Of a stretch of DNA of 26,564 bases, positions 20,001 to 26,000 are shown in pieces. Numbering within the stretch: the first letter of the stretch is position 1; each line of letters starts with the position of its first letter. This DNA comes from a bacterium (GTDB taxonomy: Bacteria; Fidelibacterota; Marinisomatia; Marinisomatales; UBA1611), in the NCBI GenBank assembly GCA_038127595.1, contig JAYPIC010000005.1:2371-28934 (forward strand), read 5' to 3'. A program made the position numbers.

Positions 20001-23000
20001 AATGACCATCAAGCCCTACTAAATGCAAAAAGGAATAAAGATCTTAATTCTTCTGATATAGTTTTTTTTCACTCTAATGATTATGATCATAATGAATCTT
20101 ATGATACTACAATTGCAAACATTCTACTCAATACTATTATTAGCTTAAGAGAAACATTGATTTCTAGTTTGAAGGAAAATGGAATTTTGATTTTAAGCGG
20201 AATTCTAGAAGAGCAAGCATCTGATATTATAGATGCATTTAAATCTGATATGTTTTTAAGTATTGTTGATAACCAAGAGGGATGGCTACTGATGAAAGGT
20301 AAAAAAAATAAATTCTAATTAGAAGGTTTTAGCATATTAATGAACTAATAAAACTATTTTTCATACCAAAAACAAAAAACCCGCCACAATAAGCGGGTCT
20401 TTGCTTGGTACGCCTGAGAGGACTCGAACCCCTAACCTTTTGGTCCGTAGCCAAACGCTCTATCCAATTGAGCTACAGGCGCATATGTTAATCTAATTTT
20501 AAAATTTTGTGATTTAAATTTACATATAATATGAATGTCATTTTTGAAAAATTATCACAGTTTATAATAGGTTAAAAATCGCAAACTAAAATGAAACATG
20601 TCATCTGCTAAAAAATTATTTTTTGCCATTTCAATAATATTCTTACTATCCTGTGAGGAAAGAGATTATCAGGATTGTAACGGCATAATAAATGGTGGTG
20701 CTTATTATGATGATTGCGGTGTATGCGTAGGTGGGAGGACAGGACTTACTGAATGCATAGTGGACTGTAATGGTCAACTTGGTGGTACAGCCTATTTAAA
20801 TCAATGCGAACTTTGTGTTGAGGGTAACACTACCCTACCACAAGATTCATGCAGTAATCTAAACTTTAATGGATATAGCTACAAAACAGTTATAATAGGA
20901 CAACAAGTATGGCTAGCAGAAGACCTAAAGACAGATCAATTTAGCGACGGTTCAACTATACCTGATTATAACTCAGAGGTAATTGATTCATCTGGAACTA
21001 AGTTTGTGACAAATTTAAATGATTCAGAAAATAGAAGATTTTATTACAGTGCCAAGACTTTAAACCAATTAGCTCCAATTGGATGGAGGATCCCAACTAA
21101 ATTAGATGTTGAAAATTTAATAAATGAATTAGGTGGTGATAGTACCGCAGGTGGCAAACTAAAAGACGCTGGTTATAATTCATGGGATTTCCCCAATCAA
21201 TTTGCTACAAATGAGTCTGGTTTTGCAGCTTTAGGAACGGGATATAGAAATAATAGTGGCAATTTAGTAGATACGCGGAGAAGATATTCCTTTTGGACAC
21301 AAGACACCTTGAGAGTAATAGATAGCATTGAGACTTATCATTGGACATTGAAATTAAGCTTTGATAGTAATAATGCTTTATTAGTGCCTGACAGCTCAGG
21401 AATTGGTCATCCTATAAGATTAATAAAAGATCATTAAATAAACATATTTTTGTCAAGAAAATGATTAATAAATCAAAAATAATTTTTTCATTTATAATTC
21501 TTTTTTCTTGCACCAAACAATTAAATGAAGATACCCAAGATATAATAGACCCTATTCAGTTCATTTGGATTTCATCAAGTGAGAATCAAAGAAGTCTTTC
21601 AGGAATTAAAGATATATACATAAACATTAAAAACTTTCCAAAAGTCTGGAAGATATACCTTTCGATTATCAATAACCCTGCTGTAAATAATCAAAATAGA
21701 ATACTATTAGATACCACTAGCACAATAGACCAGGATATTTATCAGACCTATTGGGATACTAAGTTGTACCCAAATGGCGAATATGAACTATACGCAGAAC
21801 TCTTTGATAGTTCAAATAATAGAATTTTTACTACTGAGTTTTTCAACATAAATAATTACAAAATGCTTAATGTAAAAAATAATTTAGAATCACCTGTTGA
21901 TTATCAAATTAATGGTGCGTTTGGAACGATTTTTTCAAACTCTTTTGGATTAATCGAAGTTGAGAACTTTTTTAATGATTTAATTTTAACAAGCTTTTCA
22001 GCAGGTATGCCCTGCGGAATTAGTTTAAGTAATTCATTCGTCATTAAACCAGATAGCTCAAATATTCCAATTATTATTAATCCAGATAGCAGTGTATTCT
22101 TCCTTAAAATTCAAAATAGTCAGAATTCATATATAGATTCTGTTACCATAAAAAACAATTTTTTATATGAGCGCTGTAATAATATTTCCATTCCAAATGA
22201 TAATCAGGTGTATTCCATTGGCTATTTTTCATTAAATAATGGAAGTGAAACTAAAATTATAGCAAACTATGGAAATACAGTAGATACAATCGATGTAAAT
22301 TTTTATGATCAATCAATAAAAATTGATACGTTGATTATTAATTAACCCTAAAAATCTAAATGTTGTTTTTTTACTTAAGAAGTAAGGCCTTTTTGGTTTC
22401 AATTATTGTTGGAGTTTGTATTTTTACAAAATACATCCCTGATGGAAAAGCTGAAGCATCCCAACTAACTCTATGATATCCTGATGTTAGATATCTCTCA
22501 TTTATCAATGTCGACACCCTCTCTCCTAGCATATTATATATAGAAATAGAGACTGTAGTTTCAGATGGTAAGGAATATGAGACTGTTAAAAATGGATTGA
22601 ATGGATTAGGATACAAACTATGAATGTTAGGCCTATTTGGAAGCGAAATTGATTCCTGTGTGTAGAAATCTTTATTGTATACAGTTTTTATCTCAAAACC
22701 ATCTTTTGATGCAATAACAATATCGCTTACTTCCAAAACTGACCTATTAGGAATACTAAGAATGATTTCCGTTAAAGAGTTAGTACCCGAGGCGTCATAA
22801 GCAAATACATTGTATTCATTATTATTTGATATGTAGTTAATCGACCAACCATTAGGAAGTGATATATTTTCCAAATGTTTACCGATATCTTTTAAGGTTG
22901 ATAATTTAAATTGAAAACCACCTATCTCAGAATCTGACTCAATGATAATTTTGTCAGTGACTGTGTTTTCTACAATTGATAAAATTCCCTCATCAGTACC

Positions 23001-26000
23001 TATTTGCATTGATGGGATATTATCGAATAAAACCATATTGACTAAGTTAACAACATCAATAATATTTACATTATTGTCATAATTAATATTACCCGCCTGC
23101 TGCCTACATTCAGATATTGGAATTTCTTCAGAATCATCAAGCTGCAAATGATCTAACAGAGCAACAACATCAAAAAAGTTTATTTTTGGTGAACCAGATT
23201 CGTCCAAGTCTCCATTTACATTGCCAACAACATATACATTAGCATTATCACAAATATCACATGCATCACCTTTACCATCTTCGTCAATGTCTGATTGAGT
23301 AGGATTGTATATTTCTGGGCAATTATCAATATCTACATCAAAACCATCCTCATCTAGATCAGATGGTAAATCTTCAAGCGCTTGGTTAATTGTTGCAATA
23401 ATTGCTGTTTGATTATATCCTGATTCTGAATAAAGCACTTCACCGTTACCCCCAATTACTACATTATGAGGAATGTACCCTACACCGAATAATCCATATA
23501 CATTATTTATATCCTCGACAATCGGATGGGAAAGACCAAAAGTGGTCCCCCAACTTGTGCAACTATACGGTTGATTCCAGTCTTGGCCAAATGCGACGAG
23601 AACTAATGAATCATTCGTGTATTGTTGTAAAACTGCTTCTGCCTGCGGAGCCTCCGTAGTGCAGGAAGGTCACCACGAAGTAAAAAAATTAATCCACGTA
23701 ACTCTATCTCTACCATGTTCGTCATAGGACCATGTACCATCGCCATTGTGACAAATATCACCAGAAAAATCATCCACATAACTTCCTACGGTGTAAGTCT
23801 GACTGAAAGAGAAAGAAAATAAAAGTATTATGCCTAAAAATGTCTTCATTCTTAACATAAGTTAATATCTACCCCCTAGAAAAATAAAGTTTTTTATTGT
23901 GGGAAAAATCTTAGAAAATTGCACTATATGAAAGTTTCAGCCCATCATTAAAAGGCTGAAGAATTCTGCAAATTCCATTGCTGCATACTAACCCACCCTG
24001 TATGGAGCCGTACAAAAACGATATTCGCTGAGTTGATGAAATATTATAAGAAAATTCAAGAGCGACCCATTTATTTTTAGTAAAGGATGGAGAAACTTTC
24101 CTATTTCGTTCACCAGTAAAGTACTTTATATCTCCATAAACCAAAGCCTCTAATGGATTATACTTAGGGTCAACGGTTACAATTTCTTGAACATTCGTCC
24201 AATCATAGTTTAATGTTAAAGCCCACTTAGACGCTTTCCCAACAGAAATTGAAATCATTCTATTTATTTGAAAGGGTATCTGATCAGGATAATTACTAGT
24301 TGTCTGATTAACGTATACATCTGGGTTATCAATATCATTTAAAACCCATGCAGAATCTGCATAATTGTAAAATCCGCCGGCATTACCCTTTTTTACATTA
24401 TTTTTATATCTTTCCTGGTAGGCAAATCCAAACCCTAAAGAATAACCATTATTCATGGCATATGTAAAATCAATAGGAATAGTGAAAGATTTAGAGCTTT
24501 GATAAAGTATAGTCTCAATTTGATTATTGATTGTATCAATACTTACTAATTGGGAATCTAAATAAAACCAATCATCTCCGTACCATAATGAGTCTGTGTA
24601 TTGCCATACTTCAGAAATTGAATTTGAATATCCTTCAAAATATCGATTAACCTTTGGTACTTCCTTGTTTGTACCAAATGCAGTTCTAAACTGAAGCTTA
24701 TTGTCAAAAACATAACCATTTAGCTCGGTATAGAATTCTTTATACGGCAAAGCACTAAAATTCTCTGTTGGTAACAATCCAGGAACCTCGTTGCGTTCCC
24801 ACTTTATTGGACTAACCGAGGTCCAAGTATCGTTCCTACTCAGATGAGAATATTGGCTAACGATTTGAAAACCATTTGGCAATCCACCAGAAAGCTCGAT
24901 TTGAAAACCTCTTTCATCATTCGCATTTGTTTGATGGGCAGCTCTTCCTAAGAAACTGTGATTTTGCTCACGATACAAAATAGGCATTACTTGATAATCA
25001 ATTCTATTACCATAATTATTGATTATATAATCAGTATCAACAGGACTTAGCCTGTCAAAACTATATTTTTTATATTCAAAAAATAGTGACCAACTATCTG
25101 AATAAAAGTTAGAATTAAAATAGAATGCAGAACCTTTTTTTAACGGCGATAATGTCTCAATTTCCTGACCAGAGAAGTTTGTCTGATATGTCCTAGTTTT
25201 TGATTGTTTATCTACATATTCCGCAAATATGTCCATATTGGAACCATACCAGGATAAATAAGCACCATGAAGCCGATGGTTTATATCTACTGTATCCATT
25301 ACTCCTAAGGGCTTTAATTGATGTAGTTCATTAGACTGTAAAAATGATACGCCATAACTGAACGGATATGCATCAAAATTAATGTTTGTAGCATCGATAT
25401 TATGGGTAAACTCAAATTCAGGATATCTTAAATCAGAACCAAGCTGAGCATTTATTGTTTTTCCACTCAATTGAGTAACACTAATATTATCTGCCATATA
25501 ATTTATTAAGTAACCTCTTGAGCTATTGTCAAAATCAATACTCTGATCATCAAGTTGCGATAAAACTAACCCTCGACCCCAGACCTCATAAACATCACCA
25601 AATTTTAGTGTCCAAGGACCAGAACTATATTCTACTCTGTACTTTCTCAAATCTTTTATAGGGAAGCCAAGCTCAGGTGGGTCTGAGTATTCGTACTGTA
25701 GCCAAGCTGAAAAATTATTTTTAAAAAAATTTAAATCCATCCTGTTTTCCATGTAAGTAAAATCATCATAACTATCACCAAAATTCATTACAATACCAGC
25801 ATTATAATTCCAGAAATCTAAGTCAAATACCGAAAAAGGATTTTCTTCTGCATTTAAAAAAGAAAAAGTCGCAATAGCTAAAAATTTCTTATTCATTACT
25901 TTTGAAATTGGCAAATATGGTATGTTTAAATTCTGAATTATTTTTTCAAGGATAGTAGAGATTGTATTTGGTCTTTTATCTCTAATTCTTCCCCAGGCAT

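Follow-up and report, generated by a model that had tools for sequence, protein, structure and literature searches.

A predicted TlpA-type selenoprotein with a T9SS sorting domain and its conserved cassette with a TlpA-like reductase and a DUF6029 barrel in a marine SAR406-type bacterium

The three-gene locus and its TGA-interrupted gene

Within the window, the 26,564-nucleotide stretch of DNA from a marine SAR406-type bacterium that was analysed here, three genes follow one another on the reverse strand in the order TlpA-like reductase, DUF6029 barrel and tailed selenoprotein. The first gene of this cassette (25938..26447) encodes a TlpA/ResA-like thiol-disulfide oxidoreductase with a signal peptide and the motif W-C-K-P-C. 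The second (23911..25896, its start taken as M42 of a long frame) lies directly upstream of the selenoprotein gene and encodes a DUF6029 outer-membrane β-barrel (PF19494, E 5.7e-28) that starts with a signal peptide, ends in F and carries an invariant C-x-x-x-x-C close to that end; its predicted model is all-beta (pTM 0.64) and was matched by Foldseek, weakly (TM ~0.4), to large outer-membrane barrels. These two partners were overlooked in the genome-wide survey's note that drew attention to the locus. The third gene (22371..23858) comprises 495 codons plus a stop; its full-length orthologues, 15 in all, align from end to end.

The survey's note had joined two TGA-split gene calls into a single 495-aa frame, and translation of 22371-23858(-) confirmed that they are one gene, with exactly one in-frame stop, the TGA at codon 63 (23670..23672, reverse strand). 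This codon stands in the context F-T-S-W-U-P-S-C-T and is read here as selenocysteine (Sec) in the motif W-U-P-S-C. Gene calling under table 11 breaks the frame at this point, giving a 62-aa ORF (23670-23858) and a 355-aa ORF (22371-23438). Elsewhere in the genome TGA is an ordinary stop, terminating 156 of the 868 open frames of at least 300 codons. Contigs from RNA libraries bridged the TGA in three of four runs, which shows presence only.

The recurrence of the architecture across the order, also reported in the note, was reproduced and extended to 121 genomes. In 14 of these, including the genome studied here, the match is full-length and contains a single TGA, and in one genome, G066, it is full-length without an in-frame stop; four others (G004, G020, G033 and G045), beyond the 15 full-length cases, have an open frame that is listed in two parts and contains a single TGA. 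Of the 15 full-length orthologues (35–95% identity), 14 carry TGA where W-U-x-x-C is aligned, while the G066 orthologue has Cys at the Sec position (W-C-G-P-C); when the 15 were aligned, the flanks of the TGA were conserved on both sides.

Signals for selenocysteine insertion

A SECIS-like hairpin (23639..23664, reverse strand) begins 5 nt 3′ of the TGA, and its apical stem (CGGA/UCCG) and loop GGC are invariant. Paired cells made up 87.5% of the hairpin alignment as against 29.5–46.0% in slid controls, a comparison that favours the hairpin since its structure was derived from the same related sequences. Compensatory changes on both sides were seen in 5 of 11 pairs, and the observed covariation score was reached by none of 500 shuffles. 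The third-codon positions of the hairpin's GAG-GCU-CCG are invariant in all 16 sequences; the Cys orthologue has GAA-GCG-ACU instead, and no such hairpin. The stability of the single sequence was not above that of its shuffles (z −0.33), and the case for the hairpin is therefore purely comparative.

The full Sec machinery claimed in the note is present, with tRNA-Sec (62 bits, anticodon TCA), SelA (463 bits), SelB (342 bits) and SelD (389 bits) each scoring above the respective cut-off. The aligned Cys orthologue, the two-sided conservation, the covarying hairpin and this complete machinery make it almost certain that TGA-63 encodes selenocysteine. Were it a real stop, the locus would consist of a 62-aa leader ORF followed by an independent 355-aa T9SS protein, or would be a pseudogene, and public gene calls do split the frame in this way, the 355-aa records being named ‘T9SS type A sorting domain-containing protein’. 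Such a stop would, however, sever the thioredoxin fold at its active site, and orthologues with as little as 35% identity still share the position of the TGA, its flanks and the hairpin; with a Cys orthologue in existence and the Sec machinery complete, we consider this explanation extremely improbable and already close to refuted.

Domain architecture and the export tail

The predicted selenoprotein opens with an N-terminal Sec-type signal peptide of about 20 residues (23799..23858, reverse strand, as are all of its segments), recognized by inspection from a basic residue, a hydrophobic core and S-F-S before Q, a pattern likewise found by inspection in all 15 orthologues. Residues ~21–165 (23364..23798) form a thioredoxin-fold domain in which W62, U63, C66, E69, P130 and the extra cysteines C36 and C100 are invariant. 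Its assignment as a TlpA/ResA/DsbE-type thiol-disulfide oxidoreductase is supported by structural comparison of the predicted model with Foldseek and VIA-align (DsbE-like 3gl3, Z 15.9; ResA 2f9s, Z 14.9; the surface-exposed pneumococcal Etrx2, Z 13.8) and by a PDB profile search (ResA, E 1.3e-14). The equivalog models for ResA, DsbE and TlpA scored far under their cut-offs, and the substrates of those enzymes can therefore not be transferred to the selenoprotein. Pfam matches to AhpC-TSA (E 4.9e-8) and Redoxin (E 4e-7), together with good structural matches of Bcp/Prx type (3drn, Z 13.8; 5epf, Z 13.4), would fit a peroxidase, peroxiredoxin- or GPx-like, that clears peroxides at the cell surface. 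However, the peroxiredoxin pattern P-x-x-x-T/S-x-x-C does not occur, residue −7 from U being Ile and not Pro, the motif is of the W-C-x-x-C type, and DsbE and ResA lead the structural and the profile matches, so that we hold such an activity to be very improbable.

Beyond the redox domain lie thrombospondin type-3 (TSP3) calcium-binding repeats (residues ~166–206; 23241..23363) with invariant cysteines; the Pfam match to TSP_3 is weak (E 0.02), the alignment profile matched COMP and thrombospondin-2 with E 2.5e-34, and the confidence of the predicted model is low across the repeats. A dockerin-like pair of calcium-loop-plus-helix motifs, read by eye, follows (residues ~207–280; 23019..23240); the model has helices at 228–278, and Pfam Dockerin_1 does not appear in the list of family matches, which extended to E 1. 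The next segment is a β-sandwich domain (residues ~285–400; 22659..23006; model strands 290–397, pLDDT 77–91) that may possibly be cohesin-like, as hinted by a cohesin+FN3 construct (2w1n, E 6.3e-8, aligned range not given) at Foldseek rank 2. At the C terminus a T9SS type A sorting domain (residues 415–495; 22374..22616) was recognized over cut-off by two libraries, as PF18962 (Por_Secre_tail; 48.1 bits against a cut-off of 27, E 1.5e-12, residues 415–490) and as TIGR04183 (44.7 bits against 23), and conservation of this tail extends to its very end in each of the 15 orthologues. The Pfam figures given in the survey's note for Por_Secre_tail, AhpC-TSA, Redoxin and the weak TSP_3 match were all reproduced.

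That note had placed the protein on the outside of the cell by way of the type IX secretion system. The Sec-containing thiol-disulfide fold with a type A tail held good, and the genome encodes SprA (507 bits) and PorU (570 bits), both over cut-offs, along with T9SS tails in 65 frames (the selenoprotein and 64 others); for the motor proteins GldL and GldM no match was obtained with the three models applied, two of which were silent in control genomes too, and PorV-like matches fell far under the cut-off (85 against 250 bits). These gaps would suit an ordinary DsbD/CcdA-dependent reductase confined to the periplasm, whose C-terminal domain, in this lineage, would not bring about transfer across the outer membrane. 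Reductants would be at hand there, in the form of the periplasmic TlpA and a DsbD-type membrane domain encoded in the genome, and tail-less Sec paralogues do occur in the order, for example in G117 and on contig C29 of the genome studied here. Against this, SprA, PorU and 65 tailed frames are hard to explain without working export, and the tail is conserved to its very end in 15 of 15 orthologues; we regard confinement to the periplasm as distinctly unlikely.

The conserved cassette, a proposed function and known systems

The membership of the tailed selenoprotein gene in a conserved cassette is new here. At 12 of 14 orthologue loci the gene immediately upstream is DUF6029; eight of them, the locus of the Cys orthologue among these, have the complete TlpA-DUF6029-selenoprotein order. 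A DUF6029 gene likewise stands immediately before 12 of 13 Omp28-type tailed selenoproteins, and at all of 12 further loci in the phylum a thioredoxin-like frame directly precedes DUF6029. Among 70 public DUF6029 loci, 55 could be judged, and in 46 of these a tailed gene came right after DUF6029, with U-x-x-C in 45 of the 46; since the other 9 had no tailed partner downstream, such a partner is not a strict requirement for the barrel. All these counts come from related genomes, some of which were counted repeatedly, and are therefore not independent.

The pairing of barrel and selenoprotein also admits a secreted capture site, at which the Sec-Cys pair, instead of cycling as a reductase, would bind with high affinity a metal, selenium, or a thiol or polysulfide compound and pass it to the DUF6029 barrel for uptake, in the way that surface binding proteins supply outer-membrane channels. 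We know of no electron donor or reductant outside the outer membrane, the barrel gene adjoins both kinds of selenoprotein gene at most loci, its model is weakly like large transporter-type barrels, and a preprint on other extracytoplasmic selenoproteins, in the part available to us, favours binding over catalysis (bioRxiv 10.1101/2022.07.06.499078). Yet the full reductase signature is kept (W-U-x-x-C, with Glu at the third position past the Cys and Pro in the loop, both invariant), and a dedicated TlpA partner suggests redox cycling, so that capture seems to us unlikely.

We think it reasonably probable that the gene product is a genuine selenoprotein and acts as an extracytoplasmic TlpA/ResA/DsbE-type thiol-disulfide oxidoreductase that is exported by the T9SS and works with TlpA and DUF6029. 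Starting from what can be read in the sequence (one gene, Sec decoding signals, the fold, the sorting domain and the conservation of the cassette), we infer secretion, surface retention, substrate and an electron path across the outer membrane as follows. UGA-63 would be read by SelB with Sec-tRNA(Sec), directed by the hairpin 5 nt downstream, and Sec would replace the N-terminal, attacking cysteine of W-C-x-x-C. The protein would cross the inner membrane via the Sec pathway and then fold in the periplasm, which its extra conserved cysteines and calcium-binding repeats would fit, and the type A domain would lead to passage through the SprA translocon and processing by PorU. Its final place would be at or near the external surface of the outer membrane, where a stalk of TSP3 repeats, dockerin-like segment and β-sandwich may hold the redox domain outward. 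The Sec-Cys pair could exchange with disulfides or with further sulfur or selenium species in oxidised form; selenium offers rapid exchange and resistance to irreversible over-oxidation in oxygenated sea water. The selenoprotein would form the third part of the cassette beside the periplasmic W-C-x-x-C TlpA-like reductase and the barrel, partners that bear on how the selenoenzyme is re-reduced, with reducing power most likely passing from DsbD/CcdA to TlpA.

In fold and active-site layout (Z 13.8–15.9) the redox domain resembles the DsbD/CcdA-fed ResA, CcmG/DsbE and TlpA as well as Etrx1/2 (4hqz, 2yp6), thioredoxin lipoproteins exposed on the pneumococcal surface, and the DsbD-type domain and the classical W-C-x-x-C TlpA in the same operon recall such pathways; those enzymes, however, carry Cys and belong to the cytoplasmic membrane or periplasm, whereas the protein described here combines Sec with an outer-membrane export tail. 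Catalogued TlpA/AhpC-TSA/Redoxin-type selenoproteins predicted from marine metagenomes have the same type of fold with Sec first in U-x-x-C (PMC13188914 Table 1; PMC9312934); compared by description, the entries seen give motif and Pfam family only and describe no stalk, T9SS tail or TlpA-DUF6029 context. The available text of the 2026 review (PMC13188914) contains none of the terms ‘secret’, ‘periplasm’, ‘signal peptide’ or ‘sorting domain’.

The survey's note went too far in stating that bacteria have no known selenoproteins that are secreted and anchored at the surface. In the parts of the literature at hand, SaoB/SaoC are predicted selenoproteins ‘exposed to the extracellular milieu’ (bioRxiv 10.1101/2022.07.06.499078), an MtrB/PioB-family outer-membrane barrel and ExtKL are predicted to be extracytoplasmic (PMC13188914, PMC9312934) and selenoprotein forms of ‘secreted’ proteases are in print (PMC2398784). 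SaoB/SaoC, the MtrB/PioB-family barrel and ExtKL also join Sec to export signals; they differ in fold, organism and export route, and no T9SS tail is described for them in those parts. The note's presentation of the T9SS tail as the new point was too strong as well. The catalogued NCBIfam family NF045500 (‘Omp28-related selenoprotein’), which corresponds to the ‘hypothetical protein GOS_C’ of Zhang and Gladyshev 2008 (PMC2398784, as far as seen), has members in the same order with a signal peptide, U-x-x-C, the TSP3/dockerin-like/β-sandwich stalk, a type A tail and DUF6029 directly upstream; its N-terminal redox domain is Omp28-like, whereas that of the present protein is TlpA-like. The stalk common to both accounts for a match of model positions 257–376 to residues 150–277 (E 1e-29), and because only these positions match, at 104 bits against a cut-off of 200, the selenoprotein is not a member of the family. 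A Cys analogue has also been studied: HBP35 of Porphyromonas gingivalis, in the accounts available, combines a thioredoxin-like motif with a conserved C-terminal domain (PMC2907840), is found on the cell surface after secretion dependent on the Por system (T9SS) (PMC2907840, PMC3120885) and, as recombinant protein, has thioredoxin activity that requires both cysteines (PMC2907840). Likened by description, it differs from the selenoprotein in having Cys in place of Sec, in binding hemin and in the absence of a TSP3/dockerin-like stalk.

The second tailed case that the note had put forward, on contig C115, is real; its frame (1796-2614, forward strand) encodes a signal peptide, the motif F-T-U-G-T-C and a T9SS tail.

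Decoding of the in-frame TGA codon

On sequence evidence, the T9SS-tailed protein encoded at 22371-23858(-) is a real and well-supported selenoprotein, in which UGA-63 is very probably decoded as selenocysteine (Sec). The genome-wide survey's note had joined two gene calls into a single frame, and translation bears this out: the interval yields 495 residues with one internal stop, and calling with table 11 reproduces the two pieces by cutting the frame into an ORF of 62 aa and another of 355 aa. The sole in-frame stop, a TGA, is codon 63 (23672-23670) and lies within F-T-S-W-U-P-S-C-T. 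When 121 genomes of the same order were searched with the window protein, full-length matches with exactly one TGA were found in 14 genomes (that of the window, G000, included), together with one full-length match, in the genome G066, that has no stop at all; in four further genomes a one-TGA open frame is split over two listed pieces, and these lie outside the alignment of 15 translated full-length frames. The TGA occupies the same column in 14 of these 15 frames, within W-U-P-S-C, W-U-G-P-C or W-U-S-P-C, and the G066 orthologue has Cys at that column (W-C-G-P-C). Identity of the orthologues to the window protein ranges from 95% down to 35%, with invariant residues on both sides of the Sec site.

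The genome encodes a tRNA-Sec (62 bits, over the cut-off; ARAGORN anticodon TCA) as well as SelA (463 bits), SelB (342 bits) and SelD (389 bits), all above their cut-offs. The SelD match, at C23:9610-10530(+), itself holds one in-frame TGA, and the selenophosphate synthetase of this genome is probably a selenoprotein in its own right. A reading of TGA as Trp (code 4), which is the form taken by some public gene calls, was also considered. Of the 868 open frames with 300 codons or more, 156 end in TGA and 157 in TAG. TGA thus closes long frames as often as TAG does and has no general sense meaning in this genome; moreover, the resulting W-W-P-S-C would destroy the redox motif, while a Cys orthologue exists, and the Trp reading was therefore ruled out.

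Bacterial SECIS elements are stem-loops lying directly downstream of the UGA with a G in a small apical loop. Here a hairpin can be drawn at 23639-23664, starting 5 nt after the UGA and with its loop GGC 17 nt after it, and one common hairpin is possible directly 3' of the TGA in all 16 Sec-type sequences aligned (14 full-length and two tail-less paralogues). The apical stem CGGA/UCCG and the GGC loop are invariant among the 16, and the lower stem varies in a compensatory way. Of the cells at the 11 specified pairs, 87.5% are paired, and sliding the 3' partners lowers this to 29.5-46.0%, a comparison that favours the hairpin because the structure was derived from the same related sequences. 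Changes on both sides occur in five of the 11 pairs, the observed covariation score was matched by none of 500 shuffles, and RNAalifold independently finds both parts of the stem. The invariant core codes for Glu-Ala-Pro with all three wobble positions fixed in 16/16 sequences; the Cys orthologue reads GAA-GCG-ACU there and has no such hairpin. Folding of the single sequence after the TGA gave a z of -0.33, no better than shuffles, so the case for the hairpin is a comparative one. An Rfam search over 23400-23900 returned no meaningful match and no family for the hairpin.

Part of the window gene is present in 12 runs recorded as RNA. In three of the four runs examined, which come from four studies, a contig spans the TGA with over 31 nt to either side (X1, 23260-24412; X4, 23479-23826; X5, 23052-23747), and X1 also bridges the junction with the DUF6029 gene; such contigs show presence only, because they are assembled from libraries that may contain DNA, and their depth is not rankable. 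Public gene calls (P0002-P0011, P0012, P0045) either place W at the Sec site, which looks like code-4-style calling, or start after the TGA, in which case their only name is 'T9SS type A sorting domain-containing protein'. Since public calls thus truncate the protein or read TGA as Trp, the redox domain is absent from most annotation and the class is undercounted.

Redox domain, stalk and sorting tail

The domain assignments of the survey's note were recovered with the same Pfam values, namely Por_Secre_tail (E 1.5e-12, residues 415-490), AhpC-TSA (4.9e-8), Redoxin (4e-7) and a weak TSP_3; Thioredoxin_8 matches in addition (2.9e-6), and AhpC-TSA, Redoxin and Thioredoxin_8 are all above their cut-offs. 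In structural alignment the thioredoxin domain is closest to extracytoplasmic reductases, the DsbE-like 3gl3 (Z 15.9) and ResA 2f9s (Z 14.9), with CcmG 1kng (Z 12.0) and TlpA 1jfu (Z 11.1) as further matches and the surface-exposed pneumococcal lipoprotein Etrx2, 4hqz, at Z 13.8. The TlpA/ResA/DsbE-like class (cd02966-type) is characterized by W-C-x-x-C followed by an acidic residue and a cis-Pro loop, and the roles of the Glu and Pro in this class are known from work on ResA. W62, U63, C66, E69 and P130 are invariant in 15/15 orthologues, with Cys for U63 in G066, so that Sec replaces the first Cys of W-C-x-x-C. As judged from the model and the alignment, the domain has the thioredoxin fold with the family's insertions and the active-site layout of this class. 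It shares a fold family with ResA, DsbE/CcmG and TlpA but is not any of these named enzymes, and it stays below the cut-offs of all three equivalogs (ResA 35.8 against 170 bits, DsbE 27 against 123, TlpA 11 against 230). Peroxidases of the Bcp/Prx type rank closely behind the reductases among the structural matches; the peroxiredoxin motif is P-x-x-x-T/S-x-x-C(U) (PMC13188914), and a peroxiredoxin (AhpC/TSA proper) is very unlikely, since the residue at -7 from U63 is I56 instead of Pro.

An AlphaFold model built from the 15-row alignment (mean pLDDT 71) begins with a signal-peptide helix followed by the thioredoxin fold (residues about 21-165). A low-confidence stretch at residues 165-206 corresponds to thrombospondin type-3 calcium-binding repeats, for which profile comparison with COMP and thrombospondin-2 gave E 2.5e-34. 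By visual inspection, two dockerin-like calcium-loop motifs lie in three helices (residues 228-278), which are followed by a confident beta-sandwich (residues 290-397) and by a second sandwich, the sorting domain (residues 423-493). No Dockerin or Cohesin family was listed by Pfam at E up to 1, nor was either among the best 60 PDB profile matches. The beta-sandwich may be cohesin-like, a hint given by a single Foldseek match at rank 2 (2w1n); the VIA-align rows cover residues 19-168. Additional cysteines are invariant in the thioredoxin domain (C36, C100) and in the stalk between the thioredoxin domain and the tail (C180, C200, C203, C251), and they would fit an oxidising, extracytoplasmic location.

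The type A sorting domain scores 48.1 bits with PF18962 (cut-off 27) and 44.7 with TIGR04183 (cut-off 23), and by inspection all 15 orthologues have a standard-looking signal peptide at the N-terminus. SprA (507 bits) and PorU (570 bits) are encoded in the genome, and a profile iterated from the tail found 65 tail-bearing frames. PorV-like barrels fall short of the cut-off of 250 bits, the best reaching 85. TIGR03517, PF12081 and TIGR03513, the models used for GldL/GldM (PorL/PorM), all found nothing in this genome, which is 95.8% complete; TIGR03517 and TIGR03513 were also silent in control genomes. The profile matches thus point to a translocon, a sortase and many cargoes, with the T9SS motor undetected by the models used. 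A deep in-frame TGA occurs in only two of the 65 tailed frames, the window gene and C115:1796-2614(+). The latter, put forward in the survey's note as a second case, is indeed of the same kind: its product of about 257 aa combines a signal peptide and a type A tail with a thioredoxin-like F-T-U-G-T-C site and has no stalk. Its neighbours are not judgeable because the contig is only 3.6 kb long. The genome also holds a tail-less thioredoxin-domain paralogue with one TGA at C29:5500-5988(+), within an open frame of 209 aa and 39% identical over residues 2-163.

Relation to catalogued selenoproteins

Residues 150-277 match positions 257-376 of the 377 in NF045500, 'Omp28-related selenoprotein' (E 1e-29), that is, its C-terminal third. 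This is the only part matched: the window protein, which is without the Omp28-like N-terminal domain, scores 104.1 bits against a whole-model cut-off of 200 and thus falls outside the family, whereas genuine members from this order reach 414 and 518 bits. Among 13 frames that match the window protein in stalk and tail only, 12 have a signal peptide and one TGA within a U-x-x-C of an Omp28-like domain, and the 13th is truncated at the end of its locus; DUF6029 lies directly upstream of 12 of these 13 tailed selenoproteins. Four of the 13 were scanned; two pass NF045500 with the scores just given and two fall just below (183, 180), and all four carry a T9SS tail. NF045500 is listed as 'Hypothetical protein GOS_C' (PMC13188914), a family described by Zhang and Gladyshev (2008) as Trx-like with U-x-x-C, comprising 74 Sec sequences and having no functional evidence (PMC2398784). 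In the portion of the latter source available, 'secreted' is confined to the names of two protease families with Sec forms, and the terms secret-, periplasm-, 'signal peptide' and 'sorting domain' are absent from the text of PMC13188914.

The survey's note had held that secreted, surface-fixed selenoproteins were without precedent in bacteria. This claim is too strong, as extracytoplasmic selenoproteins have already been predicted and GOS_C shares the tailed form. Indeed, SaoB/SaoC have been predicted to be 'exposed to the extracellular milieu' (preprint 10.1101/2022.07.06.499078), and an outer-membrane barrel of the MtrB/PioB family and ExtKL are predicted extracytoplasmic selenoproteins (PMC13188914, PMC9312934). 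Among proteins of the Cys type there is a precedent in HBP35 of Porphyromonas gingivalis, a surface-located T9SS cargo with a thioredoxin motif (PMC2907840, PMC3120885), the recombinant form of which has cysteine-dependent thioredoxin activity (PMC2907840), whereas the window protein is of the Sec type. Full-text literature searches combining selenoprotein with type IX secretion returned nothing related, and those combining selenoprotein with Omp28 found nothing; among the matches listed for selenocysteine and Marinimicrobia none concerned tailed selenoproteins. From its sequence features, the window protein is best regarded as belonging to an already catalogued type, the TlpA-like U-x-x-C selenoproteins, and as an exported, T9SS-tailed and stalked form of it. 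This form recurs in the GOS_C family and is tied to a conserved, unstudied TlpA-DUF6029 cassette, which is a more interesting lead than the claim of a surface selenoprotein.

The TlpA-DUF6029 cassette

The survey's picture of the selenoprotein had no partners and was in this respect incomplete, since a conserved TlpA-DUF6029 pair adjoins the gene upstream. The DUF6029 protein (23911-25896(-); PF19494, E 5.7e-28) is encoded 52 nt upstream of the selenoprotein gene and has a signal peptide and, in every orthologue examined, an aromatic C-terminal residue. Upstream of it lies the gene for a TlpA/ResA-like protein of 169 aa (25938-26447(-)) with a signal peptide and W-C-K-P-C. The model of the DUF6029 protein is all-beta (pTM 0.64), and a fold search with it returned generic large outer-membrane barrels (TM about 0.4); HHpred similarity of DUF6029 to Wzi-like barrels has been noted in one paper (PMC9603273). 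Near its C-terminus a C-x-x-x-x-C (residues 638, 643) is invariant in 8/8 aligned orthologues of 30-97% identity and falls in a predicted beta-hairpin, where model confidence is low. Elsewhere the genome codes for a membrane domain of the DsbD type (71 bits).

In 12 of 14 orthologue loci the gene immediately upstream is that for DUF6029, and the full order TlpA-DUF6029-selenoprotein is found in eight of the 14, the locus of the Cys orthologue among them; of the others, one has TlpA downstream, three are cut by contig ends and two have gaps of 1.5 and 4 kb between the genes. Across the phylum, PF19494 was found in 35 of 101 sampled genomes, with a thioredoxin-like frame directly upstream of DUF6029 in all 12 loci fetched. 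A public set comprised 70 loci with DUF6029 relatives, all from assemblies labelled Marinimicrobia, Neomarinimicrobiota or Fidelibacterota, of which 15 are cut downstream. In 46 of the 55 judgeable loci a stalk-bearing thioredoxin-fold gene follows the barrel immediately (45 with U-x-x-C, one with Cys), and in nine nothing was recognised by profiles. As there is overlap between the sets and kinship among the genomes, such counts express conservation and are not independent trials. Complex prediction for the Cys-type pair of G066, the DUF6029 protein and the Cys orthologue, gave a score of 0.00 and a mark of 0.32, which speaks neither for nor against binding. A promoter and terminator scan over 22200-26564 does not define an operon, because the site counts (25 against 23.0 in shuffles, and 2 against 2.0) do not exceed those of shuffles.

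The alignments and profile matches demonstrate a single gene that has the signals for Sec decoding, an active site like that of ResA/DsbE and a type A tail, in a conserved three-gene cassette. The most likely course, in our view, is that the protein would be exported by the Sec pathway and fold in the periplasm with structural disulfides and calcium, pass through SprA and be processed by PorU, and then be displayed on the outer face, or released, on a calcium-stiffened stalk, where it would carry out dithiol/selenol-disulfide exchange with some oxidised substrate. At the pH of sea water a selenol is ionised, and it exchanges rapidly and recovers when over-oxidised (in part PMC13188914), properties that would matter because the active site would face oxygenated water in which reductant is scarce. 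The protein would be functionally coupled to the barrel and to the periplasmic TlpA, with electrons coming ultimately from DsbD/CcdA. In its boldest form, which we consider improbable, this coupling would make the cassette a thiol/selenol relay across the outer membrane, running from DsbD/CcdA through the TlpA-like protein and the cysteine pair of DUF6029 to the surface Sec oxidoreductase, and the first conduit to work by S/Se exchange, with no hemes. If such a relay existed, SAR406-type bacteria would hold an enzymatically maintained reducing (selenol) layer towards the sea water. The barrel may instead be a substrate channel or an anchor for the cargo.

The usual view of selenoproteins is of catalysts inside the cell or, at most, in the periplasm. 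If the proposed export is correct, abundant deep-ocean bacteria spend selenium on enzymes sent past the outer membrane, which would have consequences for marine selenium demand and for cell-surface redox chemistry; the trio of genes offers a concrete handle for testing how a thiol-type enzyme stays reduced outside the cell.

Variants of the arrangement were seen elsewhere in the phylum. At two loci from another family, L067 (G133:C31) and L068 (G144:C19), a T9SS-tailed thioredoxin-fold protein is followed by TlpA and then DUF6029. Shorter Sec forms of about 280-340 aa, with thioredoxin and TSP3/dockerin-like parts and without beta-sandwich or T9SS tail, were found at L030 (G117:C1), L043 (G109:C37), L090, L095 and L138; some lie directly after a DUF6029 gene, and G117 has several on one contig. 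In the window, the convergent neighbours of the selenoprotein gene, syntenic within the genus, encode a FISUMP (Fibrobacter succinogenes major paralogous) domain protein (20598-21437(+)) and a 294-aa protein without a Pfam or NCBIfam match (21461-22345(+)). Further downstream on the same strand as the selenoprotein gene lie those for a DUF5916 protein of 790 aa (14700-17072(-)) and a 355-aa protein with a weak C-terminal DA1-like match (13225-14292(-)).
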